From the NCBI GenBank assembly GCA_031409375.1, contig JANNXD010000073.1, positions 3,486-67,485 on the forward strand: a DNA stretch of 64,000 bases, read 5' to 3'. The notes under the pieces are model-generated. The model was not told the origin of the DNA. It made no database searches and worked only from the letters and a program-made list of their open reading frames with translations. The position numbers and the translations under genes were made by a program. This DNA comes from Gammaproteobacteria bacterium (GTDB taxonomy: Bacteria > Pseudomonadota > Gammaproteobacteria > Pseudomonadales > JANQJO01). Shown here in pieces: positions 12,202-63,601 of this stretch (positions are counted from its first letter, which is position 1; the number at the start of each line of letters is the position of its first letter).

Positions 12202-12243
12202 GGTATAACTTCCATCATCATCTCAGTATCATTGCCTCACATC

Positions 12244-32564: not shown

Positions 32565-32573
32565 TTGATTGAT

Positions 32574-32603
32574 GCGTTCCTTCCCTTTGTCAGGAGGGAA
32601 CGC
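32574..32603. terminator. Hairpin between convergent genes (candidate bidirectional terminator)
   Basis: GCGTTCCTTCC-CTTTGTCA-GGAGGGAACGC: an 11-bp stem with one mismatch, followed by ACTTTGGTTT. It lies between the stops at 32564 (+) and 32621 (-). Confidence 0.5.
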
Positions 32604-32620
32604 ACTTTGGTTTACTTGAA

Positions 32621-32983
32621 TTAAGAAATCTTCACATCCGACCAAACTGCGTACTCATTACCATTGGGATCAGCAAAATGAAAACGCTGGCCGCCGGGAA
32701 AATTAAATAAGGGTTTGATAATCGCCCCGCCCGCTTCTTCAATTTTAATTTGGGTGGCGAATAGATCTTTGCTGTAAAACACAATCAACACACTCCCTGC
32801 TTTGGTGGTGACGCATAAATCACTTTTATAAAATCCACCATTAATACCCGCATCATTAAAAGCTATATAGTCAGGGCCATAGTCCACAAAAGACCACGCA
32901 AATACCTGGTTAAAAAAATCTTTAGTTTGCTGCAGATTTTTTGAGGGCAACTCTAAGTAATCAATTTTTTCGTGTCGAGCCAT
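32621..32983 (-). CDS. VOC (glyoxalase/bleomycin-resistance fold) family protein
   Basis: The size (120 aa) and pattern fit small VOC proteins: IDYLELPSKNLQQTKDFF...FGW-like, and GGQRFHFADPNGNEYAVW. Confidence 0.65.
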   Translation of the reverse strand: MARHEKIDYLELPSKNLQQTKDFFNQVFAWSFVDYGPDYIAFNDAGINGGFYKSDLCVTTKAGSVLIVFYSKDLFATQIKIEEAGGAIIKPLFNFPGGQRFHFADPNGNEYAVWSDVKIS

Positions 32984-33036
32984 GGCTTCTCCGTCAGTCG
33001 TATTTTACAATCTCGATCTACCTAATTCGCAATTGC

Positions 33037-34488
33037 TTACTCAATTCCCAATTGCCGATAAAACGCCACCACAGCAGCATCCGCTCGAACATCTCGCATA
33101 GCGATTGGCTGAATTAAAGTAATGCCCTCTAGTGTTTTCGCACGCGATAAGGCCACATAAGTTTGACCTTCACAAAATGCGCCCCGCCCCAGATCTAACT
33201 GCAAACGCTCCAAGGTTAAACCTTGCGATTTATGAATGGTAATAGCCCAACCTAACGCTAAAGGAAACTGCTGAAACGATCCCACTTCTTGCTTTTCAAT
33301 TTTTTGCGTTGCGTAATTATAAGTGTATTGGTATTTGATCCATACTTCTCTGGCCACCAGCAAGACATTATCACTGGCATGTTTTTTTACCCGAATGTGC
33401 TCATCATCAAACCCCATGACTTCACCCAAATCACCATTTACCCATTGCGGTTTTTTGTTTTTCAGAAAAATTACTTGTGCGCCGACTTTTAATTCCAATC
33501 GGTCCGGCACGGTGAGCTTCCATTGATTGGCCGATAATTCTCCCGTAATTGCCGCTTGATAAATCCGCACTTCAGCCGACAAGGCATCGAGCTCACGAGT
33601 ATTAATTTGTTTCGCCGATTGATTGGTCGGCACCAGATAAATCCCCCTCTTTTCCGCTTTCCCATTATTGCGTAAATAGTGATCCCGAAAACAGCGGCGA
33701 TTAAACAAGGCCACCGAATTCCGTGGTTGATCATTTAAACGAATGCGATTAAGGGCCTCTATAAACTCCGCATCCGCTTGCCGCCTGACTTTGGCGAGAT
33801 TCACGGGAATAATCGCTTGCTGTTTAAAAATGTCTGCTGAAAAAAAATGATAGGTGCGATACCGATGCGAGAAGTACACCATTTCTTCTTTGGAACTGAC
33901 CACAGGTGGTAGCTGCAATAAGTCGCCTACAAAGATGGTGGCCACGCCGCCAAAAGGTTGTGCATTGCGCCGCACGCGTTGCAGCGTGCGATCCATAACA
34001 TCCACCAGATTCGGCAACACCATCGACACTTCATCAATAATCAAATATCGAATATTTTCTAATACCAGTCGTGTTTTATCTTTAACGATGATTTGATCAT
34101 CGGGGTCAATATGCGTCGGTGGTAAACCAAAAAACGCATGCAGCGTATCACCCTGCACATTCACCGCCGCAATCGCCGTTGGCGCAACAACAGCACAACC
34201 TGGTAACTGCTGACACAACCATTGGATCAAAGTCGATTTACCAGTACCGGCTTTACCCGTCACAAAAATCGAAGGACAGCCTTGCTGCAACGCCTGCAGA
34301 ATAAATTGGTATTCAGGCAGAATTTCAATATCCGTCAATGGTTCAGCAAACGACGAATATTTTTTCTGCTGCCGCTGCCCCTGTTCAGGAATAATACTGG
34401 CTTCAATAATGGCAAAATTCTGCGGTGTTAGTGCATCGTCACCCAAAATATCTTGCGCGAGCGTGGTAATGGAATCCCAAACAGTCAT
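33037..34488 (-). CDS. Pif1/RecD-like SF1 DNA helicase
   Basis: VTGKAGTGKSTLI (Walker A), LIIDEVSMV (Walker B), GDLLQLPPV, and AITIHKSQGLTL with YVALSRA. Confidence 0.8.
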   Translation of the reverse strand: MTVWDSITTLAQDILGDDALTPQNFAIIEASIIPEQGQRQQKKYSSFAEPLTDIEILPEYQFILQALQQGCPSIFVTGKAGTGKSTLIQWLCQQLPGCAVVAPTAIAAVNVQGDTLHAFFGLPPTHIDPDDQIIVKDKTRLVLENIRYLIIDEVSMVLPNLVDVMDRTLQRVRRNAQPFGGVATIFVGDLLQLPPVVSSKEEMVYFSHRYRTYHFFSADIFKQQAIIPVNLAKVRRQADAEFIEALNRIRLNDQPRNSVALFNRRCFRDHYLRNNGKAEKRGIYLVPTNQSAKQINTRELDALSAEVRIYQAAITGELSANQWKLTVPDRLELKVGAQVIFLKNKKPQWVNGDLGEVMGFDDEHIRVKKHASDNVLLVAREVWIKYQYTYNYATQKIEKQEVGSFQQFPLALGWAITIHKSQGLTLERLQLDLGRGAFCEGQTYVALSRAKTLEGITLIQPIAMRDVRADAAVVAFYRQLGIE

Positions 34489-39625: not shown

Positions 39626-40126
39626 ATGAGCCATTTACATCAATATCGCGTCTTAGAACGCGAAAAACAAAATAAACGATTATTAGAAAGCCGACTGTTA
39701 TTACGGGCATTTCAACGCTTATGCGAGCACTGGGATCTATCTCGCAAAGAAGGTTTTGAAATACTCGGGTTAAATTCGCTCCATCAATTGAGCTCATGGC
39801 AATCTAGCACAGTCGACACCTTGCTCACCGACTCACAAATTGAGCGATTAAGTTTTCTGCTCAGCATTCATCAAACACTAGATCAACACCTCGCAACCCA
39901 AGTATTGCTGATCCAATGGTTACGCGATCCCAATAGTTTAAGCTCACTAACAGTAGATCCCAAATTCATTCCAGAAAAAGACATCATACCCCTGGAGTTG
40001 TTTCGCTGTGCCAACAAACAACAACTGCGGCATATTGCTCAGCAAATTATTGATGCCGATCCCGCAACCCTGTTTGTTCATGTGCCTCGGCATCAACTAG
40101 CCACCAGCAACAACAAGCGCTGTTGA
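39626..40126 (+). CDS. Hypothetical protein with an Xre/MbcA/ParS-like antitoxin (DUF2384-like) pattern
   Basis: [15 protein letters not shown]...[23 protein letters not shown]...IQWLRDPN resembles the toxin-binding domain layout. Its 3' end overlaps the dxs 3' end by 34 bp (convergent). Confidence 0.35.
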
Positions 40127-49164: not shown

Positions 49165-50430
49165 TTATTTATTAGCTGCTAATCCACTCGCCAAGGTGGC
49201 TCCGCAATGGGTATTGGCTTTAGCGGGCAGCTTGCCATAAAAACTTGGGCCTACGGTATAAGGAAAAACCGGCGCACCCTCTTCATCAAGCGTAACGTGA
49301 TAATGATACCCATGCACGGCATCTGCATGCCCGTTATGCTCATCTAAATATTCATCACCTTGCTCGGTTAAACGCTCATCCCAATAATAATCTTCATAAT
49401 AAAATCCCGATTCAGCAATAAACGTATTTTCAGAGGCCACAACCACTTGGGTACTGGTTCTGGGACCAGCTGAAGAAATAACGGTTCGGTCATGTGCCGC
49501 ATCCAGCGGATTATCAAGCAGACAAGTACGTACACCCGAAGCACCGCAACCCGTATCTGAGTTAGCATCCGCATAATCTCTTTTTACCCATGAACTTTTT
49601 GCCATGGTACCCGTAGTTTCCCAAGGGCCGTATATAGGATACCCATCAGCAGCATAACCATAAATTGGAGAATGTCCTGTTTCAGTTTCTCCAGCCACTT
49701 CAGCTAAGCAACTAGAATACGCGTGATGATGATAATCACCATCACGCGCATGGCCATTGCAAATATCCACATCATATTGTTCGATGATCGGTGCCAACTC
49801 ATGCCAAATATCTCGATCATTATAACTGCTGCCCGCTAGCCAGCCATAAATCGAAGTGCCATTGACCCATAAACCAATACTGCCCTCACCCACTGCACAA
49901 GGCTCCGTTGCGGTATCGGGTGTAGGTTTTCGCGTAAAATACACCTCATGCGCCTGCTTTTCTGGACAACCTGAGCTTGTCGGCCAAAAACCATAACCCG
50001 CATTTGCATTACAAGTCGTGTCGCTGTTAAAGCCGATGTCTTCACCAAAACCAAGTATTTGATCAACAATAATGTTGGGAATGCCTCCCTCAAAATCACT
50101 CGCGGCATTCGGGCGAGCATTGAGCATTTCTATGAGCTCTGAAGTTACCGTCACTGCATAATTGGGTATGCCGCTAGCGTTAACCATCACATAGTCACCG
50201 CTTTTTTGAACACTCTGCACGTTGACTAGAAGTGCACCTTGATTGCCTTTAAGGAAAGCCGATTTTTCTGTTGAATTTTGTACCCAAACATCGCATAAAT
50301 CGGTACCAGCAGCACAGTTGATTGCCGTACCTAAACCACCACCAGTAAAGCCATTGCCACCACTCTCGCCCCCACAAGCATTTAATAACAACAGGCCAAT
50401 GCTGAATATTATTTTGGGTTGCACCTTCAT
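49165..50430 (-). CDS. YHYH-domain lipoprotein
   Basis: Lipobox LLLNAC. DGDYHHHAY and HGYHYHV motifs are typical of YHYH domain proteins. Confidence 0.6.
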   Translation of the reverse strand: MKVQPKIIFSIGLLLLNACGGESGGNGFTGGGLGTAINCAAGTDLCDVWVQNSTEKSAFLKGNQGALLVNVQSVQKSGDYVMVNASGIPNYAVTVTSELIEMLNARPNAASDFEGGIPNIIVDQILGFGEDIGFNSDTTCNANAGYGFWPTSSGCPEKQAHEVYFTRKPTPDTATEPCAVGEGSIGLWVNGTSIYGWLAGSSYNDRDIWHELAPIIEQYDVDICNGHARDGDYHHHAYSSCLAEVAGETETGHSPIYGYAADGYPIYGPWETTGTMAKSSWVKRDYADANSDTGCGASGVRTCLLDNPLDAAHDRTVISSAGPRTSTQVVVASENTFIAESGFYYEDYYWDERLTEQGDEYLDEHNGHADAVHGYHYHVTLDEEGAPVFPYTVGPSFYGKLPAKANTHCGATLASGLAANK

Positions 50431-50454
50431 GGCTGAATTCCTCTCTAAACGATG

Positions 50455-51102
50455 TTAACCAACTGATGCACTCTTAATAGCCCGCAATTGCTGATCATGT
50501 AAGCTTGATAAAAAAAACAAACCCATTATGGCACCAAAGAGTGCAAACGCCATGTCTGATTGTGTATCCCATATATAACCTTGCGTGCCGAGAAAGGATT
50601 CCGCTGCTTCGCCAGACGTTAATGCAGCAATCCATTCTATTAATTCATACACCGCGCTCAGCGCTAAACACAAACACACCACCAAAAAATTTAACCATTT
50701 CTTACCGTTGACTACTTGCTTACGCTGCAAAATTTCTCGCGCTACTATCGCTGGAATAAATCCTTGCGCAAAATGCCCAAGCTTGTCGTACTGATTGCGA
50801 GTTGAATCGAATAACCAATTGAACTGGTCAAAGCCAGGCACTAAGGCATAGGTGTAATGACCACCGATCATTAAAATAACGCTATGAATTAAAATTAGCC
50901 AATACACTAAAGGCGTAAGCGGAAATGTTCGATAAGTCATCATTAATACAAGCAGACCCATTAATGCAGGCAACACCTCTAACCACCAAGTTAGTCGATC
51001 ATAGGGATAAATGCTGGACCAGATCAATGCGCTGAAATATACCAACAACCAAAGACACTTAGCTAGGTTCGACCAATAATTTGAACTACACGAGTGCAGC
51101 AT
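50455..51102 (-). CDS. DUF2238 (YjdF-like) inner membrane protein
   Basis: About 6 TM segments in 215 aa, and a QYDKLGHFAQGF-like motif. It starts 10 bp downstream of the megasynthase stop. Confidence 0.5.
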   Translation of the reverse strand: MLHSCSSNYWSNLAKCLWLLVYFSALIWSSIYPYDRLTWWLEVLPALMGLLVLMMTYRTFPLTPLVYWLILIHSVILMIGGHYTYALVPGFDQFNWLFDSTRNQYDKLGHFAQGFIPAIVAREILQRKQVVNGKKWLNFLVVCLCLALSAVYELIEWIAALTSGEAAESFLGTQGYIWDTQSDMAFALFGAIMGLFFLSSLHDQQLRAIKSASVG

Positions 51103-51112: not shown

Positions 51113-54100
51113 TTAAAGTGCTTTGTTAACTTGTATGCTATGTCCTTTTTTAAACCATGAAACGATTTTAGATTTTAATGTCAACTTGTTTTCTGTTGAC
51201 GCTGTAACTGATAAGGATGTCGCTTTAACCACGCCCAACTGTGGATAGACCGCTGCTAAGGTTTTCAAATCCATCATCACCCACTCACGTAACGTCATGT
51301 TGATGTCGTGCTCTAAACGAATGCGGGCGATGGATTCCATGGCTAACAAGGAATGGCCGCCGATTTCAAAAAAATTGTGATGACGATTTATGTCATTGCG
51401 CACCAATACGTGCTGCCAAATTTGCGCCAAATATTCTTCAGCCGAGTTTTCCCAGATGGTCGCGGATGGCGTGGTTTGCCATTTGACTTGCGCCGCTAGC
51501 GCGTTGCGATTGAGCTTGCCGTTAGGCAAACGCGGTAAATGCTCGAGACGCTGCCAATGCGTTGGCAACATATATCCCGGCAAATGGGGCTGCAGTTGTT
51601 GGCGTAATACCGTGCTGTCCAAATCGGATGCCGATTCATAAAACGCCACTAAGCGCAGATCTTGTTCGCTCACCGCAATTAAACTCACCGCAACAGCGGT
51701 GATGCCCACACAACGCTGGAGTTGATTTTCAATTTCACCCAACTCAATGCGAAATCCACGCAGTTTAATTTGATTATCAATACGACCGACCCATCGCAAA
51801 CGTTGCTCGGAGGTGACCTGCACCCGATCGCCGGTGCGATACCAACGGCCACGTTTGCCATGTATGTCCAACTCAACAAAACGCTCATCCGTCATTTGCG
51901 GTTGATCACGATAACCGGCCGCCAGACCAACACCACCAATATACAACTCGCCAAAAGCGCCCATTAAACTCGGTTGTTGGCTTTGATCGAGCACAGCCAG
52001 TTCGGTGTGATCGAGCGCATCGCCAGGATCACACACTTGCTCAGGTGCGGTAATTGGTCGACACGCCGACCAAACCGCTGTCTCGGTCGGGCCATACATA
52101 TTCCATAACTGACAACCCTTTGCTAATAACTGCTGCGCTAAATTTGGCGACATGGCTTCACCGCCACATAAGGCTTTAAATTCAGGCGCAGGTGTCCAAC
52201 CGGCAGCTAATAATAATTGCCAGGTCGTCGGCGTCGCTTGTAATGCCGTCGCTTTTGTACTCACTAACAATTGTTTGAGTTTGTCGCCATCTTGCGCTGT
52301 CAAACGATCCGCAATCACGGTTTGAGCGCCCACCCACAGAGGTAAAAACAATTCCAGCACAGCAATATCAAAAGAGATGGTGGTGACCGCGACCAACACA
52401 TCATCGGCACGCAAACCAGGCGCACGCTGCATCGATTGCAGAAAATTCACCACGCTCAAACGTTTGATGGCCACGCCTTTAGGAACACCAGTAGAGCCGG
52501 AGGTGTAAATCACATACGCCAATTGCGATTGGATGCGCGTTAAACTTGACTGAGGTACTGAAGGTAATTGATCAATGCTCAGAACCTTTCTGCCGGTGAA
52601 ATCATCAGCTCGAAAGCGATCGGTAATAATCACACTGGGTTTGGCGTGATCCAGCATATAAGCAATACGATCGGCTGGATAATCCGGATCCACCGGCACG
52701 TAAGCTTTACCGGCTTGCCACACCGTGAGCAACGCCACCAGCAAATCCAATCCCCGATCCAAACACACGGCAATCACATCGCTGGGTGCATTCAACACAT
52801 GCGGCAGTAAAACATCAATCTGCTGCTGCAGCTGCTGATACGTCAAGCGATGTTGTTGAAACACCACCGCCGTGCGTGCATAAAATTGCTGACGTTTTTC
52901 CTGTAACAGTTCGCCAAGATCAGCGTTGGGCAAAACCGGTGTTGGCCCCTGCCAATAAAACCGATTGTCCGGCAACGCCAGCGGCACTTGTGTGAGCGGA
53001 CTTTGCCAACTGATGGTGCCACTGGTCAGTCCGCGCATCAGATCGCGCCACTCATACAAACGTCTTTGCCAGGTTGGCTCGAACCACAGATCGGTATTAA
53101 AGGTACATTGCGCTTGTAAGGCGTGATCACTCAACATTAGATTCAACGTGCATTCAAAATTATCAAAATGCCGAGGATTCACCGCCAACTGCACATCAAC
53201 TTCGGGATAAGCATAAGGCTCAGAACGCATCACATCGATATTAAATAACAGCGGCAACAAGGGAATTCGACCGGGATCGCGTGACAAGGGCAAATGTTTT
53301 AACAGCTGACCAAAGGTTAACGCTTGATGTTCATAGGCTTCTAATAATTTTAATCGCACCAATTGCAAAGCCGACAGCGCACTGCCCTGCCCATCCAACG
53401 GCAACCGCAAGGGCAGTACATTCACACAATGACCAATTAACTGCGATTGACCACTGGCGGCTTGTCCTGAGGCGGGCAAACCCACCAGTAAATCATCCTG
53501 TTGCGTCCAGCGCTGCAACACCATTAAAAAGGTGGTTAATAACCAAGTGACCACACTGACATTGTGTTTGATGGCATCGTCCCGAATGGCTTGTACCAGA
53601 TCAGCACCTAAATCCAGATCCAAGCGCTTGGCGTGATAAGTGCGCTCAACTTGACGCGGCTTATCCGTCGGAAGGTCCATCTGTGGAATATTATCCAGCG
53701 GATATTGTGTTAGCCAGTAGGTCAGTGATTGTTGCTGAGCGGTGCGTGCCTCAACGTCATACTGCGCTTTGGCGTAATCGGCAAATTGTGGGGGCCACGG
53801 TAATTGAGCGGCCAGCTGCTGTGGATTGACGGCTTGTTTTAACGCCGCCGCATATAAATGTCCCAACTCGCGCACCATCACCGAATACGACCAACCATCA
53901 CATAAAATATGATGCGCACATAACAACAGCTCATGATAATCCTCATGCACCTGCACCAAGATCACTTTAAATAACGGGCCAGTTAATAAATTATAGGGCT
54001 GTGTCACTGATTGTATTTTTAATTGCGCCAAACGATCGCTGACATCACCCGCACGCAAATCAATAAACGCATAGACCAATTGCGGATGATGCGGAATTAA

Positions 54101-57100
54101 CAATTGCTGACCGGCGTGCGTGAATGTCGCCACCAGTAATGGATGACGCAAAATCATGGCGTTTAATGCCAGTTGCAATGCGTCCTGCTGCAAATTCCCA
54201 GTAATTTTTAAAGCAATCGATTCATTAAAAGAACAGTTAGAATCATCACCCATTTGTACCGCAGCATAAATTTCTTGTTGCGGCTCAGTACTGGCAATCA
54301 CATCATTGAACTTCATGGCCGGCGATAACAATTGCGGCATTTTTTTTGGCAACAAGTCTTGTTGTTGTAACCTAACAATCGATTGTTCAAACGCAGCTAG
54401 TAACATATTCAGCTCGGCTTCACCATGCGCCAACGTCATAAACCAGGTGCGGCCTTCATAAATATGAATACCGTGCAAACGCATAGCGATATAAAACAGA
54501 CCAGGCAACGTAAATGACTCATCCCATTCAATCCGAAAAGCAGAACTAAAATAAGCAATTTTTAACGGCGCTTGTAAGCGCTCGGCTAAACGCTGCAATC
54601 GTTGTAAAAATAATTCACAACGATGATTTAGCTCCGCTTGGAGTTGCGGCCCCTGCTGTTCCAGAAACGCAAGCGTTGCACAGCAAGCGGCCAACGTGAG
54701 CGGATGCCGCACAAAAGTACCGGCAAAATAGGTGACGCCAACTTCAGGCCGTGAATCATCACCATATTGCCAACGGCCGCCATCGAGTGCATCCATATAT
54801 TTTGCACAGCCAGCGATGGCACCAATCGGTAAACCACCACCGATAATTTTGCCATAGGTCGCAATATCTGCCCGCACACCAAAATAGGCTTGCGCACCAC
54901 CTTGGTGGCAACGAAAACCGGTGATTACCTCATCAAAAATGAGCGCGATATCCTGTGCACGCGTGAGGGTACGCAACGCTTGCACAAACGCACGCGGCTG
55001 CCAATGTAAGCGTCGACTTTGCACCGGCTCGACCACCACGGCGGCAATTTCATCGGCATGTTCTGCAATAAAATCTAGACTATCCGCGTCGCCATAAGCC
55101 AATACCCAAACTTCTTGGGTTTGGCTAAACGGAATTCCCGCCACCGCCGGTATACCTTGCGCGTCCGCACCGGCACGCACGATGACTTCATCAAAAATAC
55201 CGTGGTAATCATCAGTGAAGATGACGATGCGATCACGACCCGTGACCGTCCGCGCAATGCGCAATGCACCCATGACCGCTTCGGAGCCGGTATTACAAAA
55301 AGCTACGCGCTCATGCCCCGTCATGCGACACATGGCTTGTACCGCATAGGCTACTTTCGGATGCTGCGGACCAATTTCCACGCCGTCTTGCAACTGGGCG
55401 ATTAACGCTTGTTTGACGATATCGGGATTATGCCCGAGTAAAATCGCGCCAAAACCACTGGTGACATCCAGATATCGATGGCCATCAATATCGGTAAAAT
55501 ACGCACCTTGCGATTGCTGAATTACCAGCGGATAAACTGCTTCTTTTAAAGTCGGATTAAACCCCGACACCGCACGAGGATCGGCAAGCTGAGCACGATT
55601 GTCGGCCGTAAATTTTTTTGAGCGGGCGGTTTTCTGAATATAAAGCGTCAGCAGTTCGTTAATCGCTTGCTGCTGCGTTTCACTCATCACCTGACGTTGT
55701 AATTGAATGCGCGTCTGCGCACCAAAAGCTTTGGCTGGTGTCGTACTTTGCGTTGTACTTTGTGTTTGTGTTGCTGGGGAGTGGTTTTTATCGCGCACTG
55801 GTTTTGATGCGGCAGGAGGAGTTGCGCTAGAGAGCGATGGCGCACGTTCCGCAATCAATTCTGCCAACGCCTGCACCGTCGGATGCGTGTCCATGAGTTC
55901 ACGCAAACCAATCGCCACTTTAAATTGACGTTTTAACTGCGCCCCCAACTGCGTCAATAATAACGAATCCAGCCCGAGTGCAATCAATGGCTGTTGATAA
56001 TCATCAACATGCAATTGAATACCCGAAACCTTACTAATTTCTGCCGCAATCTGTTGCGACACGTCCGGTTCTTGCACTTGACGATTTTCTAGGGGCGAAT
56101 GATCATTCGCCCTCGCGCTCTGCAACGGTTCAGCCGTTATCGGTGGCGCACTGCTATCGGCTATCTGCGTACCCACTGCCGACATTTGCGAACCAGCACC
56201 CAACATGGGTGCAGCACCTTCCAGCGCCGGCGCTTCAATCCAAAACCGCTGACGTTGAAACACATAGGTTGGCAACGGCACACGTCGACGCTGTTCCGCT
56301 AAATACAAACCACTGTAATCGATGTTTTGGCCCACCTGCCATAACTGTCCCACGGCTTGCAACCAAGTACTGACACTCTGCGCAAAGTGTTTCGGATGCG
56401 GCTGACTGGCGACGATCAAATAATTCTGAGCGTTCAATGCGCTTTGCGCCTGTCCTTGCGACAGCCCTTGCGACAAAACCCGATGCGGCCCGACCTCTAA
56501 CCAAATGGCTTGTGGACAATGCGCTTGTGCCGTGGCAATGGCCGGGGCAAATTGTACCGCATGAATAATTTGCTGCGACCAATAGCTGGGTTCACACCAA
56601 GTCATCGGCATGATCGCTTGCCCGCTGGCAGACGAAATCGCCGCCGCTTGTGCGGGATGACGCGAGACAGCGGCCACTACCGCCTCAAATTCTGCCAGCA
56701 TCGGCAACATCATCGGCGAATGAAACGCGTGTGACGTATGTAAGCGTTGGCTTTCTAACCGCAGTTCGGTTTGCAAACGCTGCTGCACCTGTTCAATGGC
56801 GTCAAACGTTCCCGACAATACACAGCGAGTTGGTGTATTGATCGCCGCTAACGACACGTCTGGTGATAAATAGGGTTGTAATTGTTCTGGCGTTGCCATG
56901 ACAGCGAGCATGGCACCGGCTGGCATGGACTGCATCAGCTTGCCGCGCAGCGCGACCAGTGATAACGCATCTTCTAAACTGAACACCCCAGCTAAGGTCG
57001 CTGCCACCCATTCACCAATGCTGTGACCGATCATCAGATCCGCCGTGACGCCAATACTTTGCCACAGCTTGGCCAGCGCATACTCGACCACAAACAAAGC

Positions 57101-60100
57101 CGGTTGCACTTCAACGGTGGCTTGCCAGGCAATGAGTTCATCATCACGATTCATCAAACGAGCGAATAAATCGAGATCACAACGTTGTTTTAAAAACTCG
57201 CAACAGGTATCGATTATATTTTTAAACACGTCATAGGTTTGATATAAGCCGTGCGCCATCCCCAAGGATTGACTGCCTTGTCCGGGAAATAAAAACACCA
57301 CAGGCGCATCCGTTAACACTGGCAATACCAAGCTTGTTTCAGTGGCAGTCGTTAGCTGCTGCTGTAAATCACCCAGTGTATTCGCAACAAAATGCACCCC
57401 ATAAGCAAAGCGATGCCGCCCCACCTGTAAGGTGTAAGCCAGTTGTGCCAAATTTAGTTCAGGATGCCGGGGAATAAACTCGGCAAAACTTTGCAGCAAG
57501 GCCTGCAAGGCTTGTGGTGTTTTGGCTGTGAAACTGCACACTTGCGGATTTGTTGAGTCGGCAATTTTTTCAAACACAGGCGATTGCGCTAACACAATAT
57601 GCGCATTGGTCCCGCCCAAGCCAAACGCACTCACGCCAGCCAGCCTTTGCTCACTCAACCAAGGTTGCGTTTGTTGATTAACGACAAAACCATTTTTTTG
57701 CCACTCAATATCAGGATTGGGTTGATCGCAATGCAAACTGGCGGGCATCTGCGCATGCTGCAACATCAAGCTGGTTTTAATGACACTGGCTACTGCAGCG
57801 CCGGCATCCAGATGACCAATATTACTTTTCAAGGAACCGATACGACACAGCGGCAGACCCGTATCACGCGATCCATAAGCACGACTTAATCCGGCCATTT
57901 CAATGGGATCACCCAAACGCGTTGCCGTACCATGGGTTTCCACATAACCAATGTCGTGCGCTTGAACACCGGCTTGTTGTAACGCCGCTTGAATCACGGT
58001 GGCTTGGCCGTGCACGCTGGGGGCAGTAAAACCAATTTTATTGGCACCATCATTATTAATCGCTGAGCCTTTAATAACAGCACGAATACAATCACCATCC
58101 GCGAGTGCATCCGCTAAGCGCTTGATCACCAACATCGACATGCCACTGCCACGCACCATGCCGGAAGCCTGCGCATCAAAGGCACGCGTTTGGCCATTGG
58201 CCGATAACGGCCCACCTTCTACCGATAGATAACCGACACGATGCGGCACCAATACACGACCACCGCCCACCAAAGCGGCATCACATTCCCCTTGTCGCAA
58301 ACTGTTGCACGCCAAATGCAAAGCAACCGCTGAACTCGAGCAAGCGGTTTGCACATTCACCGCCGGACCCTGCAGATTGAACTTAAACGCCACGCGGGTC
58401 GCGGGAAAATCTTTTTCATTTCCCAGCAAGCCCAGATAATCCCGACAACCGTCCCGCAACTGCGGATTCGCCGCTAAGTGATGCAATAAATAACCGTTAT
58501 GCGCCACGCCGGCAAATACCCCAACCAAACCTGGCACCTGCAAGGGATCATAACCCGCATCTTCCAATGCCCACCAAGCTACTTCGAGCAGCAATCGTTG
58601 TTGTGGATCCATCCATTGCACTTCTTTGGGGGTATAACCAAAAAAACTGGCATCAAAACTTTCAATATCTGTTAACGGCGCACACCATTTAACATAATTA
58701 GTTTCTTGCCATATCGCTGGATCAACACCCGCTTTGGCCAGCGCCTCAAAAACCACCGGCTCTAAACTACTGCGTGCGGCAAGTAAATTCGCCCAAAATT
58801 GTTCGATTGAGTCCGCGCCTGGAAAACGCCCCGCCATGCCGACAATCGCAATTTCAGAATTTTTCTGAAAACTGGTTTTGCGCTGGGCTTGCTGTTTTTG
58901 AACTTGTTGAAGATTGTCCCTCGTAATCGCAACCTGATAAATTTCCGGTAGCACCTCACGGTGTTGCGTCAACAACACTTGGCTATACGCACGAATGGTG
59001 GGATCCGCAAAAAAATCGGCCATGCTAAGTTTCGTATCAAGCGATTTGGCCAGTGCACCAATAAACTCAATCGCTAATAACGACGTGCCGCCCAATTCAA
59101 AAAATCGATCTAGAACCCCAATGCCTTGCAACTGCAATAATGCTTGCCATTGGTTTAATAACCACTGCTCAAGGGCATTTTTGGCCGGCACATAAGCGGT
59201 GTTTAAATCAGGACGCTCATGACGCGGGGACGGCAGAGCGCGTCTATCCACTTTACCATTGGCATTTAAGGGTAAGCTGGACATTTCCATCCATAGAGTT
59301 GGCAACATATAGTCGGGCAATGTTGCTTGCAAATCAGCGCGCAACCTGGAAATCGAAATTTTGCTTTTCCAAACAATATAAGCTGCCAGCTGTGAAGCCG
59401 TTTCTTGGGTAGCGATAACCGCCGCATTTTCAATGGCCGGATGATTAATGAGAGCCTGCTCAATTTCACCCAGTTCGATCCGAAAACCACGAATTTTGAC
59501 CTGATGATCGCGTCGACCGCAATACAACAAATCACCACTCGGTAAGCGCTTAACTAAATCACCCGTCAGATAAATCCGCCCCAACTGGGCATGCTGAATA
59601 AATTTTTCTTGCGTGAGATCGGGATTTTTGGGATAGCCCGCGCCGACGCCAATGCCACCAACCGCACACTCGCCCATCTCATCATCGTCAATCGGCTGCA
59701 ACTGATCATTCAGCACAGTTAACACCATCTGTGGAATAGCTTTACCAATCGGCGCTTGTTGATCATCAGGAAAATTTTTTGGGACGATAAAAAAACTCAC
59801 AACATCACTACATTCAGTCGGCCCATAACTATTGACAAGCTGCGTTTGGCATTGCGGATGCTGAAACCACGCCTTAAATGGCGCTAAATATAAAGCTTCA
59901 CCGCCAAGAAAAACCCAGCGCAAAGATACCAAGGCTAATGGCTTGTGATCATCAATTCCCAGCATCAAGCCTTTCATGGCGGTGGGTGTGCAATTCAAAC
60001 TGGTAATCTGGCATTCGTGAATCTGCGTTAATAAATCTTGCGCATCATAATGTTCACAATTCGGCAAATATAAACAAGCACCCTGCCGCCATGCAGTCCA

Positions 60101-60724
60101 AATATTCTTTTGCGTTAGATCAAACCCAATCGACGACATTAACAAAGGTCGCCAGCTGGCATCAAACTGGCCGATCTCGGCATACCACGCGTAAAGATTT
60201 TCAGCGCCAGCCCGCAGAACCACGGCACCTTTTGGCTGTCCAGTGGAACCGGACGTGTAAATGGTATAAAACGGCTGATCCGCACTCAGCGCCAACTGCG
60301 GATTATGCGCAGAACCCTGCAGTTCATCGATCAACCATATTGGCTGATGACTTGTCACAGATAACAGGTCGGTGGTCTGCATCAGCCGCACCTGCATCGC
60401 AACATCATCCACCAAGCAGCCCAAACATCCACTATCCTGCAAAATCGTCATGAGTCGTTGCGTCGGCATTTCAGGATCCAACGGCAAATAACCAGCCCCC
60501 GTTTTAGCAACTGCCAGCAAGGCAATCATTTGCGCAAAACCTCGATGCGCCAACACAGCTACCGTTTGCCCCGCACCCACGCCTTTAGCCAACAAACCGT
60601 GCGCCACTTGATTCGCATGGCAATTTAATTCGGCATAGGTCAGATACTTTTGTCGATGGAACACCGCGAGCGCACTGGGTGCCGAAGCAGCATGATCTTC
60701 GATTTGACTAATTAGGCTCGTCAT
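51113..60724 (-). CDS. Hybrid NRPS-PKS megasynthase (A-T-KS-AT-T-aminotransferase-C-A-T), 3203 aa
   Basis: All core motifs were located by eye; see the domain features below. The AT carries GHSIGE plus HAFH (malonyl type). The A2 pocket reads DILQLGMVWK (Gly-like). No TE or R domain follows the last carrier. Confidence 0.9.
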   Translation of the reverse strand: MTSLISQIEDHAASAPSALAVFHRQKYLTYAELNCHANQVAHGLLAKGVGAGQTVAVLAHRGFAQMIALLAVAKTGAGYLPLDPEMPTQRLMTILQDSGCLGCLVDDVAMQVRLMQTTDLLSVTSHQPIWLIDELQGSAHNPQLALSADQPFYTIYTSGSTGQPKGAVVLRAGAENLYAWYAEIGQFDASWRPLLMSSIGFDLTQKNIWTAWRQGACLYLPNCEHYDAQDLLTQIHECQITSLNCTPTAMKGLMLGIDDHKPLALVSLRWVFLGGEALYLAPFKAWFQHPQCQTQLVNSYGPTECSDVVSFFIVPKNFPDDQQAPIGKAIPQMVLTVLNDQLQPIDDDEMGECAVGGIGVGAGYPKNPDLTQEKFIQHAQLGRIYLTGDLVKRLPSGDLLYCGRRDHQVKIRGFRIELGEIEQALINHPAIENAAVIATQETASQLAAYIVWKSKISISRLRADLQATLPDYMLPTLWMEMSSLPLNANGKVDRRALPSPRHERPDLNTAYVPAKNALEQWLLNQWQALLQLQGIGVLDRFFELGGTSLLAIEFIGALAKSLDTKLSMADFFADPTIRAYSQVLLTQHREVLPEIYQVAITRDNLQQVQKQQAQRKTSFQKNSEIAIVGMAGRFPGADSIEQFWANLLAARSSLEPVVFEALAKAGVDPAIWQETNYVKWCAPLTDIESFDASFFGYTPKEVQWMDPQQRLLLEVAWWALEDAGYDPLQVPGLVGVFAGVAHNGYLLHHLAANPQLRDGCRDYLGLLGNEKDFPATRVAFKFNLQGPAVNVQTACSSSAVALHLACNSLRQGECDAALVGGGRVLVPHRVGYLSVEGGPLSANGQTRAFDAQASGMVRGSGMSMLVIKRLADALADGDCIRAVIKGSAINNDGANKIGFTAPSVHGQATVIQAALQQAGVQAHDIGYVETHGTATRLGDPIEMAGLSRAYGSRDTGLPLCRIGSLKSNIGHLDAGAAVASVIKTSLMLQHAQMPASLHCDQPNPDIEWQKNGFVVNQQTQPWLSEQRLAGVSAFGLGGTNAHIVLAQSPVFEKIADSTNPQVCSFTAKTPQALQALLQSFAEFIPRHPELNLAQLAYTLQVGRHRFAYGVHFVANTLGDLQQQLTTATETSLVLPVLTDAPVVFLFPGQGSQSLGMAHGLYQTYDVFKNIIDTCCEFLKQRCDLDLFARLMNRDDELIAWQATVEVQPALFVVEYALAKLWQSIGVTADLMIGHSIGEWVAATLAGVFSLEDALSLVALRGKLMQSMPAGAMLAVMATPEQLQPYLSPDVSLAAINTPTRCVLSGTFDAIEQVQQRLQTELRLESQRLHTSHAFHSPMMLPMLAEFEAVVAAVSRHPAQAAAISSASGQAIMPMTWCEPSYWSQQIIHAVQFAPAIATAQAHCPQAIWLEVGPHRVLSQGLSQGQAQSALNAQNYLIVASQPHPKHFAQSVSTWLQAVGQLWQVGQNIDYSGLYLAEQRRRVPLPTYVFQRQRFWIEAPALEGAAPMLGAGSQMSAVGTQIADSSAPPITAEPLQSARANDHSPLENRQVQEPDVSQQIAAEISKVSGIQLHVDDYQQPLIALGLDSLLLTQLGAQLKRQFKVAIGLRELMDTHPTVQALAELIAERAPSLSSATPPAASKPVRDKNHSPATQTQSTTQSTTPAKAFGAQTRIQLQRQVMSETQQQAINELLTLYIQKTARSKKFTADNRAQLADPRAVSGFNPTLKEAVYPLVIQQSQGAYFTDIDGHRYLDVTSGFGAILLGHNPDIVKQALIAQLQDGVEIGPQHPKVAYAVQAMCRMTGHERVAFCNTGSEAVMGALRIARTVTGRDRIVIFTDDYHGIFDEVIVRAGADAQGIPAVAGIPFSQTQEVWVLAYGDADSLDFIAEHADEIAAVVVEPVQSRRLHWQPRAFVQALRTLTRAQDIALIFDEVITGFRCHQGGAQAYFGVRADIATYGKIIGGGLPIGAIAGCAKYMDALDGGRWQYGDDSRPEVGVTYFAGTFVRHPLTLAACCATLAFLEQQGPQLQAELNHRCELFLQRLQRLAERLQAPLKIAYFSSAFRIEWDESFTLPGLFYIAMRLHGIHIYEGRTWFMTLAHGEAELNMLLAAFEQSIVRLQQQDLLPKKMPQLLSPAMKFNDVIASTEPQQEIYAAVQMGDDSNCSFNESIALKITGNLQQDALQLALNAMILRHPLLVATFTHAGQQLLIPHHPQLVYAFIDLRAGDVSDRLAQLKIQSVTQPYNLLTGPLFKVILVQVHEDYHELLLCAHHILCDGWSYSVMVRELGHLYAAALKQAVNPQQLAAQLPWPPQFADYAKAQYDVEARTAQQQSLTYWLTQYPLDNIPQMDLPTDKPRQVERTYHAKRLDLDLGADLVQAIRDDAIKHNVSVVTWLLTTFLMVLQRWTQQDDLLVGLPASGQAASGQSQLIGHCVNVLPLRLPLDGQGSALSALQLVRLKLLEAYEHQALTFGQLLKHLPLSRDPGRIPLLPLLFNIDVMRSEPYAYPEVDVQLAVNPRHFDNFECTLNLMLSDHALQAQCTFNTDLWFEPTWQRRLYEWRDLMRGLTSGTISWQSPLTQVPLALPDNRFYWQGPTPVLPNADLGELLQEKRQQFYARTAVVFQQHRLTYQQLQQQIDVLLPHVLNAPSDVIAVCLDRGLDLLVALLTVWQAGKAYVPVDPDYPADRIAYMLDHAKPSVIITDRFRADDFTGRKVLSIDQLPSVPQSSLTRIQSQLAYVIYTSGSTGVPKGVAIKRLSVVNFLQSMQRAPGLRADDVLVAVTTISFDIAVLELFLPLWVGAQTVIADRLTAQDGDKLKQLLVSTKATALQATPTTWQLLLAAGWTPAPEFKALCGGEAMSPNLAQQLLAKGCQLWNMYGPTETAVWSACRPITAPEQVCDPGDALDHTELAVLDQSQQPSLMGAFGELYIGGVGLAAGYRDQPQMTDERFVELDIHGKRGRWYRTGDRVQVTSEQRLRWVGRIDNQIKLRGFRIELGEIENQLQRCVGITAVAVSLIAVSEQDLRLVAFYESASDLDSTVLRQQLQPHLPGYMLPTHWQRLEHLPRLPNGKLNRNALAAQVKWQTTPSATIWENSAEEYLAQIWQHVLVRNDINRHHNFFEIGGHSLLAMESIARIRLEHDINMTLREWVMMDLKTLAAVYPQLGVVKATSLSVTASTENKLTLKSKIVSWFKKGHSIQVNKAL
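51250..51440 (-). other. Carrier domain T3 (terminal)
   Basis: FFEIGGHSLLAME at 51337-51373. Only about 45 aa follow before the stop. Confidence 0.75.
51480..52925 (-). other. NRPS adenylation domain 2, predicted Gly
   Basis: YTSGSTGVPKG, NMYGPTE, YRTGD, GRIDNQIKLRGFRIELGEIE and NGKLNRNAL (51498-51532). The by-eye pocket code DILQLGMVWK is close to the canonical Gly code DILQLGLIWK. Confidence 0.7.
52990..54290 (-). other. NRPS condensation domain
   Basis: CAHHILCDGWSYS (53882-53920). Confidence 0.8.
54365..55735 (-). other. PLP-dependent class III aminotransferase domain (GSA-aminomutase-like)
   Basis: CNTGSEAVMGALRIAR, IFDEVITGFR, and ATYGKIIGGG with the Schiff-base Lys (54841-54870). 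Confidence 0.8.
55900..56080 (-). other. Carrier domain T2 (ACP)
   Basis: LIALGLDSLLLTQL at 55962-56000. Confidence 0.75.
56250..57300 (-). other. Acyltransferase domain, malonyl-CoA type
   Basis: FLFPGQGSQ (57259-57300), GHSIGEW (57007-57033), and the HAFHS motif (HAFH marks malonyl specificity in established PKS rules). Confidence 0.8.
57590..58860 (-). other. Ketosynthase domain
   Basis: EIAIVGMAGRFP (58821-58856), TACSSS active-site Cys (about 58329-58360), ETHGTAT, and GLGGTNAH (about 57598-57640). Confidence 0.85.
58990..59190 (-). other. Carrier domain T1
   Basis: FFELGGTSLLAIE at 59066-59107. Confidence 0.75.
59225..60724 (-). other. NRPS adenylation domain 1 (loading)
   Basis: YTSGSTGQPKG, NSYGPTE, YLTGD, GRRDHQVKIRGFRIELGEIE and NGKVDRRAL (59225-59263). 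The by-eye pocket code is D-L-K-N-F-G-S-D-V-K. Asp235 is retained, so the substrate is probably amino-acid-like. Confidence 0.75.
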
Positions 60725-60811
60725 AGGGAGAACAACTCAAGATAAAACCATACTAATGCAGGACAAGAAAGCCACACTAATCGAAATTGTGTTTTATGAA
60801 AATAGCATTTA

Positions 60812-63601
60812 TCAACTTAATCGCTTGCGATCAGTATTATTATAAACGCGAAAGGTTGGAGCTGAGGTGGGCATTTTACGGATAGAATATTCACTGCGCT
60901 TAAACCAATTCATTAATACATCGATCGGAACAGGACGTGCGATGTAATAACCTTGACCAATGTCACAACCCAAGTCTAATAAAGCTTGATAGGTTTTTTC
61001 GTCTTCAATGCCTTCAGCAACCACCTCTTTACCCAAATTATGACTCATATTCAGCGTGGTGCGCACAATTACTTGATCATCACTCTCCTGGCACATCTCG
61101 GTGACAAACGAACGATCAATTTTAATTTCGGATACTGGCAAGCTTTTTAAATACGACAAAGATGAATAACCAGTACCAAAATCATCAATTGATAAACGAA
61201 TACCACACTCATTCAAAGCCAAAATATTACGCATTGATCGAGAGGGATCCATCATCATCGCGGTTTCGGTGATTTCAAAACAGAGTAAGTCAGCTGGAAT
61301 CGCATATTTCTGCAAGCTCGCTAATACAGAATTGGGCAACTCCATTTCCTGTAAATTTTTAGCTGACAAATTTATCGATACGCGCATCGAAAAACCCTGC
61401 TGATAAAAACGCTGCGCTTGCTGCATAGCCTCATCAATAACCCATGCCGTTAATTGACGAATAACCCCTGTTTTTTCGGCTACTGGAATAAATTCATGTG
61501 GCGGAATAAAACCATGCACGCGATGTCGCCATCGAATTAAAGCTTCTACACCAATGACTTCACGCAACCGCAGGTCGACTTGCGGCTGATAATATAATTG
61601 CAAATCACCGACACGTAGGGCGTGTTTCAATTCAGAAACCAAGGTTAAACGTCTGGCACTGTAAGGATCTAACTCGGCGCTGTAAAAAACCACCTGCTGA
61701 TCACGCAATTGCGCAATTTCAATCGCGACATGTGCATGCTGCAATATATCAGCGCTTGTACTGCCATGCTCTGGATAACAAGCAATACCTAAAAATCCGG
61801 TAATATCTAAAGACATCAGCTGACACTCGAATGGCTGATTTAAACACTGTTGTACATGCTCACTGATACTGATTAATGTTGACTGGTCGACAGATTCCAG
61901 CAAAGCGCCAAATATCACCCCTTCAAGTGCCGCCAGATGCGCAACTTTAGCTTCACGCACCTCTAAATTCACCACGCCAGGTAATTGGATGACCACCTCA
62001 TTCAAACGCAGGGCAATACGTTTTAATAATTCATCCCCATTATGATGGCCGAGTGTGTTATTAATTTCTTTAAAATGTCCCAGATAAATTAACATTAAAC
62101 CATATTGACCATTCGGATCATGATCAATTTTTTTTTCAAGAACCCGCTGCAATGCTTTACGATTTGGACAACCGGTTAATGCATCATAAAGCGTATGCTG
62201 AACTTTCTGCTGATCGGCTAAACGTTGCTGATGCGCAGCTTCAATCGCGCTGAGTTTTTCTTTTAAGCGCGTTGACAGCATCTGCCTAACTTCAATAAAA
62301 CTGCCACAAACAATAAACAGTAAATGCGACATGATACCCAGCGTTAAAGCATTACTGCGTTCAAAACTATTGACATCGATAACACTCAACCAACCACTAT
62401 GACGCGCATACCCCAGCAACCCCATCGCAAAACCGATCATCATGAAACGAAATGACATGTGCTTCCACACGTTAAGGGCACATAAAGTAAGCAGGCCAAT
62501 GGTCATATTGGCAACACCCAGGAAATAGACCAGCTGCTGCAATAATAAAGAATTTAAAAAAGTCAGTAACGTGACCACAGCAATGATCACTAAGGCAGCA
62601 ACGTAATACAGGCGAGTGACGATAGTGGGCATATAGGCAAAAGTCATCACCCGTATTAACGACAGGCCCAGTGCGAACACAAATCCGCTTAAACAAAAAC
62701 TGATTTGATTAATCCACAATTGATTTTCTGGCCAGAAAAATTTCTGAATAAACCCTTGGCTCGTTAAATGGACGCTTAATGACAGCACAATATAGAGCAA
62801 TTGCACATAAATAGTACCGTGACGCGTCACCAACCCTGTAGCAATTAAAATCGCCACGAGCAATAGGCACCCGCCTAAAAAAGCACCGTAAGTGAACATT
62901 TGACGACTTTGATAACCAGCTAAGATGCCTTCATTCCAAACTTCTAATTGTAAAAATGGCTGATGTTGCCCGCTTACCCATAAATAAATATCGGTTGGCT
63001 GATCTGCCGTTAAGAATAATGGCAATGTCGTATCTAAACTGTCAGTCGTTGAAAGAATCGTGCTGGGTCTCGACAAATCCTCGGTTTGAACCAATTTACC
63101 GCGCATAACGACAAATAACTGTGCCTGATCGATCGTAGCATCACTAAATTTAAGTACCCATTTTGATGAGTCGCGGGAAAACACACGCAAGCGCAACCAA
63201 AACGGCTGCGCGTGAACGAATGGATTATGCGGCTGCCATCCCAACCAATCTGGACTGGCTTTGGCCTGCGAAAAATTAAGCGGATACTTTGATGTCAAGA
63301 CTTGCAGCTGCTTGTCAACGACATAAAAGCCCTCAGAAGGACTTAATGACAATATTGAGTCCACCACGCCTGTACGCGCAGCTGACGGCATAACAGAATT
63401 ATTGGCAAATACAGATGCAGAGAAGATCAACAGTATGATTTTTAAGATTGAAAAAAAACAGCACTCGCAATTGCGGGTAGGTAGAAAAAAACACGATGCG
63501 AACAAGGCAAACCCCAGCAGAATAATGCGGTTATTAAGTAGACAGTAGATCGAGATAAGAAATACGTCAAAAAAAAACCGCTTACTGGTGTCCAAAAACA
63601 A
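60812..63601 (-). CDS. 7TMR-DISM-type membrane sensor with a degenerate GGDEF and an intact EAL domain (c-di-GMP phosphodiesterase candidate)
   Basis: Periplasmic DISMED2-like region, 7 TM segments, and a GGDEF fold with GHHNGDELL but LEGVIF (61898-61934) in place of GGDEF. EAL motifs are present: EALIRW (61529-61558), DDFGTGYSSL, EGIED and GQGYY. The true start is uncertain: the track start is a TTG inside a tandem repeat, and a signal-like segment KIILLIFSASVFA lies about 50 aa downstream. Confidence 0.8.
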   Translation of the reverse strand: MFLDTSKRFFFDVFLISIYCLLNNRIILLGFALFASCFFLPTRNCECCFFSILKIILLIFSASVFANNSVMPSAARTGVVDSILSLSPSEGFYVVDKQLQVLTSKYPLNFSQAKASPDWLGWQPHNPFVHAQPFWLRLRVFSRDSSKWVLKFSDATIDQAQLFVVMRGKLVQTEDLSRPSTILSTTDSLDTTLPLFLTADQPTDIYLWVSGQHQPFLQLEVWNEGILAGYQSRQMFTYGAFLGGCLLLVAILIATGLVTRHGTIYVQLLYIVLSLSVHLTSQGFIQKFFWPENQLWINQISFCLSGFVFALGLSLIRVMTFAYMPTIVTRLYYVAALVIIAVVTLLTFLNSLLLQQLVYFLGVANMTIGLLTLCALNVWKHMSFRFMMIGFAMGLLGYARHSGWLSVIDVNSFERSNALTLGIMSHLLFIVCGSFIEVRQMLSTRLKEKLSAIEAAHQQRLADQQKVQHTLYDALTGCPNRKALQRVLEKKIDHDPNGQYGLMLIYLGHFKEINNTLGHHNGDELLKRIALRLNEVVIQLPGVVNLEVREAKVAHLAALEGVIFGALLESVDQSTLISISEHVQQCLNQPFECQLMSLDITGFLGIACYPEHGSTSADILQHAHVAIEIAQLRDQQVVFYSAELDPYSARRLTLVSELKHALRVGDLQLYYQPQVDLRLREVIGVEALIRWRHRVHGFIPPHEFIPVAEKTGVIRQLTAWVIDEAMQQAQRFYQQGFSMRVSINLSAKNLQEMELPNSVLASLQKYAIPADLLCFEITETAMMMDPSRSMRNILALNECGIRLSIDDFGTGYSSLSYLKSLPVSEIKIDRSFVTEMCQESDDQVIVRTTLNMSHNLGKEVVAEGIEDEKTYQALLDLGCDIGQGYYIARPVPIDVLMNWFKRSEYSIRKMPTSAPTFRVYNNTDRKRLS

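Follow-up and report, generated by a model that had tools for sequence, protein, structure and literature searches.

A single-polypeptide NRPS-PKS hybrid without a release domain, with an in-line aminotransferase and predicted to join homoserine, malonate and glycine

Introduction

Aminotransferase (AMT) domains embedded in assembly lines of non-ribosomal peptide synthetases (NRPSs) and polyketide synthases (PKSs) are known from lipopeptide and toxin pathways, in which they make beta-amino fatty acids. The AMT domain of the mycosubtilin synthase subunit MycA turns a beta-keto group into a beta-amine. MycA is primed with a long-chain fatty acid by the fatty-acyl ligase at its start, couples the chain to asparagine and is the first of several subunits that end in a thioesterase (TE). 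In the microcystin and nodularin proteins McyE and NdaF, a ketosynthase (KS), an acyltransferase (AT) and an acyl carrier protein (ACP) are followed by an AMT, a condensation domain (C), an adenylation domain (A) and a thiolation or carrier domain (T), and the AMT makes the beta-amino group of Adda before the NRPS condensation. McyE additionally carries a C-methyltransferase and an extra C domain, and receives a long polyketide from upstream PKS modules. Here, we describe a gene for a hybrid of this kind in a 64,000-nucleotide stretch of a Gammaproteobacteria bacterium (assembly GCA_031409375.1, contig JANNXD010000073.1, positions 3,486 to 67,485), hereafter the window. The encoded synthetase has the order A-T-KS-AT-T-AMT-C-A-T on a single polypeptide and lacks a recognisable release domain.

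Two further systems are relevant for the chemistry. In biotin synthesis, BioF forms an alpha-amino ketone (7-keto-8-aminopelargonic acid) by a Claisen-type condensation of an amino acid, which is converted by the class-III transamination of BioA into the vicinal diamine 7,8-diaminopelargonic acid. Two-module fungal anthranilate NRPSs such as AnaPS release their product without a TE as a seven-membered diazepinedione. Our preferred reading of the window enzyme, to which we assign a probability of about 0.55, is a functional, self-contained three-module assembly line that combines homoserine, malonate, transamination and glycine, and from which the product is released by cyclisation or by a hydrolase acting in trans.

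Results and Discussion

Domain Architecture of the Synthetase

All Pfam assignments on the 3,203-aa protein have E <= 1e-11. They follow the order AMP-binding with AMP-binding_C, PP-binding, ketoacyl-synt (N and C), the KS-AT linker families, Acyl_transf_1, PP-binding, Aminotran_3 (1731-2052), Condensation (2142-2568), AMP-binding and PP-binding. Together with the motif positions (Table 1), this bears out the domain order proposed in a preliminary description that was made from the DNA letters alone. The same description had deduced a malonyl-type AT, for which the HAFH motif was found, and the absence of ketoreductase (KR), dehydratase (DH) and enoylreductase (ER) domains. Indeed, no KR, DH, ER, methyltransferase, thioesterase or reductase family is matched by Pfam anywhere in the protein. 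The AT and the second carrier domain (T2) are about 90 residues apart, and a hidden reductive domain therefore has no room. All catalytic signatures are intact: the three carrier serines, the Cys-His-His triad of the KS, GHSxG in the AT, the lysine of the AMT and HHxxxDG in the C domain. The KS, AMT and carrier residues, whose possible inactivity had been raised as a check, are thus all in place. Both A domains (A1 and A2) contain motifs A3, A5, A7, A8 and A10, including the A10 lysines (NGKVDR at 489 in A1, NGKLNR at 3068 in A2). The synthetase is a modular type I NRPS-PKS hybrid in which every domain has its catalytic residues.

The GC content of the gene is 0.50, and 0.48 at third codon positions (GC3). 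The GC3 of the immediate neighbours is lower (0.36-0.42). As these values lie above those of the neighbours yet inside the range of other window genes (0.40-0.55), horizontal transfer of the gene is not claimed.

The Aminotransferase Domain

The AMT domain had been described as an in-line pyridoxal phosphate (PLP) enzyme, and it proves to be of the MycA type. In the PDB, it matches best (E 8e-107) the AMT of subunit A of mycosubtilin synthase (6KFM/6KFU), and the alignment includes the PLP lysine. The next-best class, the glutamate-1-semialdehyde aminomutases, follows far behind (E about 1e-53). The domain stands directly after the ACP of a KR-less module and directly before the C domain, which is the layout of beta-amination in MycA and ItuA. 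This closest relationship to the MycA AMT supports a step from beta-ketone to beta-amine on the ACP-bound chain.

Adenylation Specificities

The ten pocket residues of each A domain were placed relative to motifs A4, A5 and A10 and then by alignment, which reproduced exactly the two codes that had been read by eye, DLKNFGSDVK for A1 and DILQLGMVWK for A2. A1 aligns over its full length to its best PDB relatives LgrA, PvdL and TycA and carries the equivalents of Asp235 and Lys517. The earlier assignment of A1 to the amino-acid type thus stands, while its pocket, then left without a substrate, now matches a published homoserine (Hse) signature. DLKNFGSDVK is the pocket of the homoserine-incorporating modules of the laxaphycin and scytocyclamide synthetases, and was called the Stachelhaus code for Hse by antiSMASH 4.1 (PMC7524897). 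A 2025 survey gives DLKNVGSDVK and DLKNLGTDVK as signatures of domains activating Hse or homoserine lactone (Hsl) (PMC12283262). The A1 code is identical to the published homoserine code at 10 of 10 positions and fits DLKN[FVL]G[ST]DVK, and a large clade of its nearest database relatives retains DLKN[FVY]G[ST]D[IV]K. A1 is hence predicted to activate L-homoserine.

The code of A2 differs from the canonical glycine code DILQLGLIWK by conservative changes only and fits DILQLGxxWK. In addition, A2 strongly matches the A domain of Acinetobacter baumannii AB3403 (4zxh), which we take to be glycine-specific. Both observations agree with the glycine-type second A domain proposed before.

It is rather improbable that A1 loads another amino acid, for example serine, threonine or 2,4-diaminobutyrate, and that a different 3,4-diamino acid would result. 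Signatures predict a substrate only indirectly, A1 shares no more than about 41% identity with its nearest relatives, and the biochemical basis of the Hse code comes from few systems. Nonetheless, the code that A1 matches at all ten positions has been linked to Hse residues of known structures (PMC7524897), and the surrounding clade keeps this signature throughout.

Proposed Chemistry and Product

Substrates, reaction order and product are inferred as follows. A1 would activate L-homoserine and load it on the first carrier domain (T1). The AT would place malonate on T2, and one decarboxylative condensation by the KS would yield 4-amino-6-hydroxy-3-oxohexanoyl-S-T2. With no KR, DH or ER acting on this intermediate, the MycA-type AMT would turn the 3-keto group into a 3-amine, giving a vicinal (3,4) diamine. 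The C domain would then couple the diamino-acyl group to glycine on the third carrier domain (T3), which would give 3,4-diamino-6-hydroxyhexanoyl-glycyl-S-T3. With the homoserine signature in the A1 pocket, the product can be stated: the most likely predicted compound is 3,4-diamino-6-hydroxyhexanoyl-glycine (free acid C8H17N3O4, 219.122 Da). An AMT that works on an amino-acid starter would give a 3,4-diamino acid, a building block for which no assembly-line precedent was found.

Since the enzyme has no TE, reductase (R) or terminal C domain, release would occur by self-cyclisation or by a hydrolase in trans. In the first, speculative route, the 3-amine would attack the glycyl thioester to form a seven-membered 1,4-diazepane-2,5-dione (C8H15N3O3, 201.111 Da). 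Such a ring closure would be easier with glycine, which is the preferred partner in the family. In the second, equally speculative route, a hydrolase or thioesterase encoded elsewhere in the genome would act in trans. Transfer of the chain to another synthetase would be a further option.

Absence of a Release Domain and Selection on the Gene

The serine of T3 is followed by 78 residues, of which around 40 belong to the carrier fold, so that a tail of 38 residues remains. This tail holds no cryptic release domain, a point on which the preliminary description had asked for a check, and the lack of a TE, R or terminal C domain that it had noted is borne out by Pfam, by the length of the tail and by tblastn. 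With the TE domains of relatives as queries, no TE remnant was detected across the window (best E 1.8). Nor did Pfam reveal a thioesterase in any of the 39 window open reading frames (ORFs) of at least 150 aa, which are mostly housekeeping-type genes. A tblastn search of the window with the phosphopantetheinyl transferase (PPTase) of a related cluster found no PPTase, and one with an only approximate MbtH query found no MbtH-like protein. The reported absence of MbtH, PPTase and thioesterase genes is therefore confirmed for the window. An Rfam scan of the window gave no match.

An ortholog allows the effect of selection to be estimated. The contig L005 (GCA_031374325.1), with around 90% DNA identity, contains the last 1,477 codons of this ortholog, whose protein is 92% identical to the window protein over 1,476 aa. 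It likewise ends shortly after T3 without a TE. The ratio of nonsynonymous to synonymous substitution rates (dN/dS) between the two genes is 0.10 at a dS of 0.43 (Nei-Gojobori, 1,476 codons). Per domain, it is 0.06 for the AMT, 0.09 for the C domain, 0.08 for A2 and 0.13 for T3. The synthetase gene contains no frameshifts or stop codons. The low dN/dS and the shared TE-less end indicate that the enzyme is functional without a release domain, and the TE-less form is maintained by selection in at least two lineages. That the gene is instead a degenerating or silent remnant that yields no product after losing its TE is very hard to believe. The lack of a TE, of a nearby PPTase and of tailoring genes, along with a poor Shine-Dalgarno sequence, would suit such a relic; the purifying selection, the uninterrupted frame, the intact catalytic motifs and the independent recurrence of TE-less forms all contradict it.

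The same ratios bear on a premature exit of the chain. Attack by the homoserine-derived amine could form a 4-amino-gamma-lactam or a tetramate-like ring and detach the intermediate from T2, leaving C-A-T idle or serving another purpose. It is established chemistry that gamma-amino thioesters readily form lactams, and other pathways protect such amines; here neither an N-terminal C domain nor an acyl cap masks the amine. Yet purifying selection constrains the C domain, A2 and T3 (dN/dS 0.08-0.13) as strongly as the AMT, which argues against early lactam release, and C-A(Gly)-T is retained as a unit throughout the family. We therefore regard an early exit as quite improbable.

Distribution of the Family

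With the T2-AMT-C region as query, a full HMMER scan of 1.84 billion representatives yielded 29,225 matches at E <= 1e-30, none of them with more than 44% identity. Domains were mapped locally in the best 150 of these matches, 127 of which contain an AMT. The N-terminal part of these 127 consists of a KS in 55 cases, A-T-KS in 16 and (C)-A-T-KS in seven. Another 14 begin with about 580-690 aa that are unassigned and may be a fatty-acyl ligase, and the remaining 35 are fragments or have other layouts. Several single proteins (P0274, P0270, P0305 and P0365) show exactly A-T-KS-AT-T-AMT-C-A-T without a release domain, with Pro- or Val-like A1 codes. In the set derived from the best 150 matches, the A domain that follows AMT-C is most often Gly-like (28 of 116). 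Domain-sized database queries returned only proteins of about 1,000 aa or less, among which the window protein itself never appeared, and whole-protein scans of genome and metagenome contigs retrieved no close relative. Per domain, the identity to any relative outside the enzyme's own lineage is only 41-58%; for the KS, the value against homoserine-type relatives is 56-58%.

The closest relatives of A1 are free-standing A-T proteins encoded directly upstream of genes for KS-AT-T-AMT-C-A(Gly)-T-TE (L001 and L002). Genes for an Sfp-type PPTase, a methyltransferase and a MATE exporter are also part of the L001 cluster. When genomes were scanned with an alignment of the A1 pocket region, 79 loci were retrieved. 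In these, a homoserine-type A domain followed by KS-AT-T-AMT-C-A occurs in Akkermansiaceae, Luteolibacter and other Verrucomicrobiota (L021-L023, L034, L037, L045, L064 and L069) and in a Nitrococcus metagenome-assembled genome (MAG; L061), where the line ends in a methyltransferase domain. The logic of an Hse-type A-T plus KS-AT-T-AMT-C-A(Gly-like)-T is found in L001, L002, L037, L061 and L069, while L045 encodes a fused single protein of 3,329 aa with a basic tail and no TE. A terminal TE is present in L001, L002 and L069 and absent from the window enzyme, its L005 ortholog and L045. The TE is thus a variable rather than a strict feature of Hse-malonyl-AMT-Gly lines.

The impression of a singular design, given by the preliminary description, is not borne out. 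An amino-acid-primed A-T-KS-AT-T-AMT-C-A-T line is frequent, as the 16 A-T-KS proteins above illustrate, and a 2013 survey already listed layouts with carrier proteins (CPs) of the form A-CP-KS-AT-CP-AMT(-C-A-CP) as orphans, among them Pedobacter heparinus C6XWU5, predicted as 'Nrp-Mal-Gly', and Salinisphaera F7QBN5 (Milano et al., PMC3870968). No characterised product for this architecture was found in the literature searched, which mostly did not extend to subscription journals. Judged by its domains, the window enzyme belongs to a common, uncharacterised family whose members are split or fused and have a TE or not.

Free-standing A-T-TE proteins (around 900 aa) and A-T proteins (around 610-660 aa) with the homoserine-like code DLKN[FV]GTDIK are also numerous, in particular in Verrucomicrobiota (P0138-P0156 and others). 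S-adenosylmethionine (SAM)-dependent methyltransferases, as separate genes or as a fused C-terminal domain, adjoin several homoserine-type PKS-AMT clusters (L001 21021-21881, L045 8260-9345, L061 9150-10145 and L002 1683-3972). Because no methyltransferase gene lies near the window synthetase, its product may be an unmethylated version.

Gene Neighbourhood and C-Terminal Tail

A gene for a DUF2238 membrane protein starts 10 nt after the stop codon of the synthetase gene and is probably co-transcribed with it. A gene for a YHYH-family lipoprotein comes next and is the last of the same-strand run (Table 1). A 7TMR-DISM GGDEF-EAL protein is encoded upstream of the synthetase. For a gene near the synthetase, the best named relatives are marine Gammaproteobacteria, with an identity of about 50%. 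The genes for DUF2238 and for the YHYH lipoprotein, which has His-rich motifs, form a conserved pair (window 49165-51102, minus strand; L005 4501-6117; L006 339-2197; L008 130-1338), which in both the window and L005 lies directly downstream of the synthetase gene. In a more distant relative (L006/L007), a different, non-NRPS ORF directly precedes the pair. For this reason, and given that both genes are absent from related clusters, they are probably not pathway genes and were not assigned to the pathway. The gene that follows the fused TE-less synthetase encodes a polytopic membrane protein both here and in L045, though of different families (DUF2238 and Rce1/CPBP-like, respectively). In L045, a Verrucomicrobiaceae MAG, the Rce1/CPBP-like gene (19417-20328) overlaps the synthetase gene (9431-19420) by 4 nt.

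The tail of the window enzyme contains the basic amphipathic stretch LKSKIVSWFKK, which is partly kept in the L005 ortholog as KEKLISWFK. Apart from this K-x-K-[IL]-[IV]-S-W-F-K stretch, the two tails have diverged. TE-less relatives often end in a short basic amphipathic motif as well: P0270 (RRKSGILGRLLGRQLF), P0305 (KGKLGIIRRFLRRQ), P0308 (KKSGLLNKLIQKLKH), P0348 (RRSLFSRIFRKRA), P0355, P0258 (RGLFGRLLSRFGKRW) and L045 (RKGWLSKLLERK). These TE-less tails are presumably similar to the helices by which MinD and FtsA are targeted to the membrane. Acidic tails, in contrast to the basic one here, occur in relatives whose lines extend into further subunits. Speculatively, the basic tail may tether the enzyme to the membrane, or recruit or dock a release partner.

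These surroundings are informative for the idea that the synthetase is one subunit of a longer, dispersed line, in which a C domain, additional modules or a release enzyme elsewhere would take over the chain from T3, with the tail as a docking element. Further C or C-A modules do follow KS-AT-T-AMT-C-A-T in L022, L037, L064, P0258 and P0277, the synthetase has no TE of its own, and the window extends only 3.3 kb beyond the 5' end of the gene. Such a dispersed line is nevertheless unlikely, as no further NRPS or PKS gene occurs among the window ORFs in the 51 kb on one side, the GGDEF-EAL gene occupies the other side, L005 has the same non-NRPS downstream neighbours and the acidic tails of multi-subunit relatives do not match the basic one observed here.

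A wider generalisation is possible but doubtful. The enzyme and its relatives might constitute a widespread, chemically unexplored class of compact assembly lines in which an amino acid, malonate, glycine and a nitrogen introduced by transamination are built into dipeptides with a vicinal diamine (beta,gamma-diamino acid), with the TE-less forms releasing their product either by self-cyclisation to a diazepanedione or by hand-off at the membrane via a MinD/FtsA-like C-terminal amphipathic anchor.

Several points weigh against the reading as a self-contained Hse-malonyl-AMT-Gly line. Specificities could have drifted, given the low identity to relatives outside the lineage, and the chemistry of substrate, intermediate and product is deduced wholly from signatures and homology. 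Through its free 4-amino group, which lies beside the thioester, the chain could leave T2 prematurely as a gamma-lactam. As the closest Hse/Gly relatives (L001, L002 and L069) carry a TE, release in this family may normally need catalysis. No PPTase is encoded nearby. Finally, the hydrophobic moment of the window tail (0.54) is not above background (mean 0.47, 95th percentile 0.72).

Table 1. Features of the synthetase gene and its surroundings (positions in the window; aa, amino acid residues of the synthetase).
Feature	Position	Strand	Details
Synthetase ORF, A-T-KS-AT-T-AMT-C-A-T	51113..60724	-	ATG start; 3,203 aa; end coordinate includes stop codon
A1, aa 1-500	59225..60724	-	code DLKNFGSDVK; best PDB matches are NRPS A domains, e.g., LgrA
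T1, aa 515-590	58955..59182	-	Ser547 in LGGTSLL (GGTS 544-547); Pfam and motif
KS, aa 615-1040	57605..58882	-	Cys795 (TACSSS 793), His931 (HGTAT), His971 (NIGH 968); Pfam and motifs
AT, aa 1138-1455	56360..57313	-	Ser1235 in GHSIGE (1233); malonyl motif HAFH at 1332; Pfam and motifs
T2 (ACP), aa 1548-1632	55829..56083	-	Ser1586 in LGLDSLL (GLDS 1584); Pfam and motif
AMT, class-III PLP aminotransferase, aa 1682-2127	54344..55681	-	DEVITGFR 1931; Lys1959 in YGKIIGGG (1957); Pfam Aminotran_3 and PDB match
C, aa 2138-2575	53000..54313	-	HHILCDG at 2271; Pfam and motif
A2, aa 2590-3100	51425..52957	-	code DILQLGMVWK; strong match to A. baumannii AB3403 (4zxh)
T3, aa 3101-3165	51230..51424	-	Ser3125 in IGGHSLL (GGHS 3122-3125); Pfam and motif
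C-terminal tail, 38 aa	51116..51229	-	no release domain; contains LKSKIVSWFKK; tail comparison
DUF2238 membrane protein	50455..51102	-	start 10 nt after synthetase stop; AAGGA before it
YHYH-family lipoprotein	49165..50430	-	lipobox LLNAC; last gene of same-strand run; Pfam
Promoter-like site TTGATA-18 nt-CACAAT	60786..60815	-	in or next to the 87-bp gap upstream of the ORF; consensus match only

Other Genes in the Window

The remainder of the window contains some further features. At 453-4399, about 47 kb from the synthetase gene, genes for a KAS III-like protein and a 594-aa AMP-binding enzyme lie together with a divergently oriented one for a short-chain dehydrogenase; they may form a small acyl-lipid or fatty-acid-derived pathway. 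A 974-aa protein of the animal haem peroxidase family (12244-15168, minus strand) lies beside a run of ORFs (6282-12201, minus strand) without any Pfam match except for a weak DyP_N (7472-8923). A transporter of the major facilitator superfamily (MFS) fused to an acyltransferase domain (24352-26247, minus strand) is presumably comparable to the LplT-Aas fusions of lysophospholipid transporter and acyltransferase. The region 26314-34488 has a lower GC content (0.41-0.44) and encodes three large ORFs without Pfam match and a PIF1/RecD-like helicase. PADLOC matches are weak here: the helicase matches PDC-S68 and RecD-like profiles, and a 318-aa ORF faintly matches LmuB/JetC. This region may be a mobile or defence islet. 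Lastly, a 166-aa ORF with an Xre-like antitoxin helix-turn-helix (39626-40126, plus strand) overlaps the 3' end of dxs, and no partner toxin was identified there.

Comparison with Known Systems

The window enzyme overturns no principle of NRPS or PKS enzymology, and nothing about it contradicts known assembly-line logic. Being small, complete on one polypeptide and under selection, it is a convenient test case for three questions: what the product of a common orphan family is, how release proceeds without a TE, R or terminal C domain, and how a free gamma-amine avoids premature cyclisation.

The described systems share parts of the design. The orphan lines of the 2013 survey and those of L001, L002, L037, L045, L061 and L069 have in common with it an amino-acid starter, in cis or from an adjacent A-T protein, one malonyl extension, an AMT and mostly a glycine module. 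They differ in the 41-58% identity per domain, and many have a TE, an extra methyltransferase or further modules. The likeness to BioF and BioA is limited to the chemistry, namely a vicinal diamine obtained from an alpha-amino ketone by a class-III aminotransferase; these are free-standing enzymes with free substrates, and the chain is built in the opposite direction. AnaPS resembles the proposed release in that a dipeptidyl thioester with a beta-amino group may leave without a TE through a seven-membered ring. As a fungal enzyme with an aromatic beta-amino acid and neither PKS nor AMT, it is a precedent for the release route only. McyE and NdaF share the order KS-AT-ACP-AMT-C-A-T with the window enzyme. 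Compared with McyE, Pfam identifies no C-methyltransferase, upstream PKS modules or extra terminal C domain in the window enzyme. There is a further parallel with MycA and ItuA, which likewise combine a KR-less PKS module, an ACP followed by a class-III PLP AMT, and C-A-T, and so proceed from beta-ketone to beta-amine to amide bond. Unlike MycA, the window enzyme starts with an amino-acid A domain of homoserine code instead of a fatty-acyl-AMP ligase, has glycine as its partner, and is accompanied by no other NRPS gene and no TE within the window. It works like the MycA module, without the fatty-acyl starter and without a multi-subunit, TE-terminated line.

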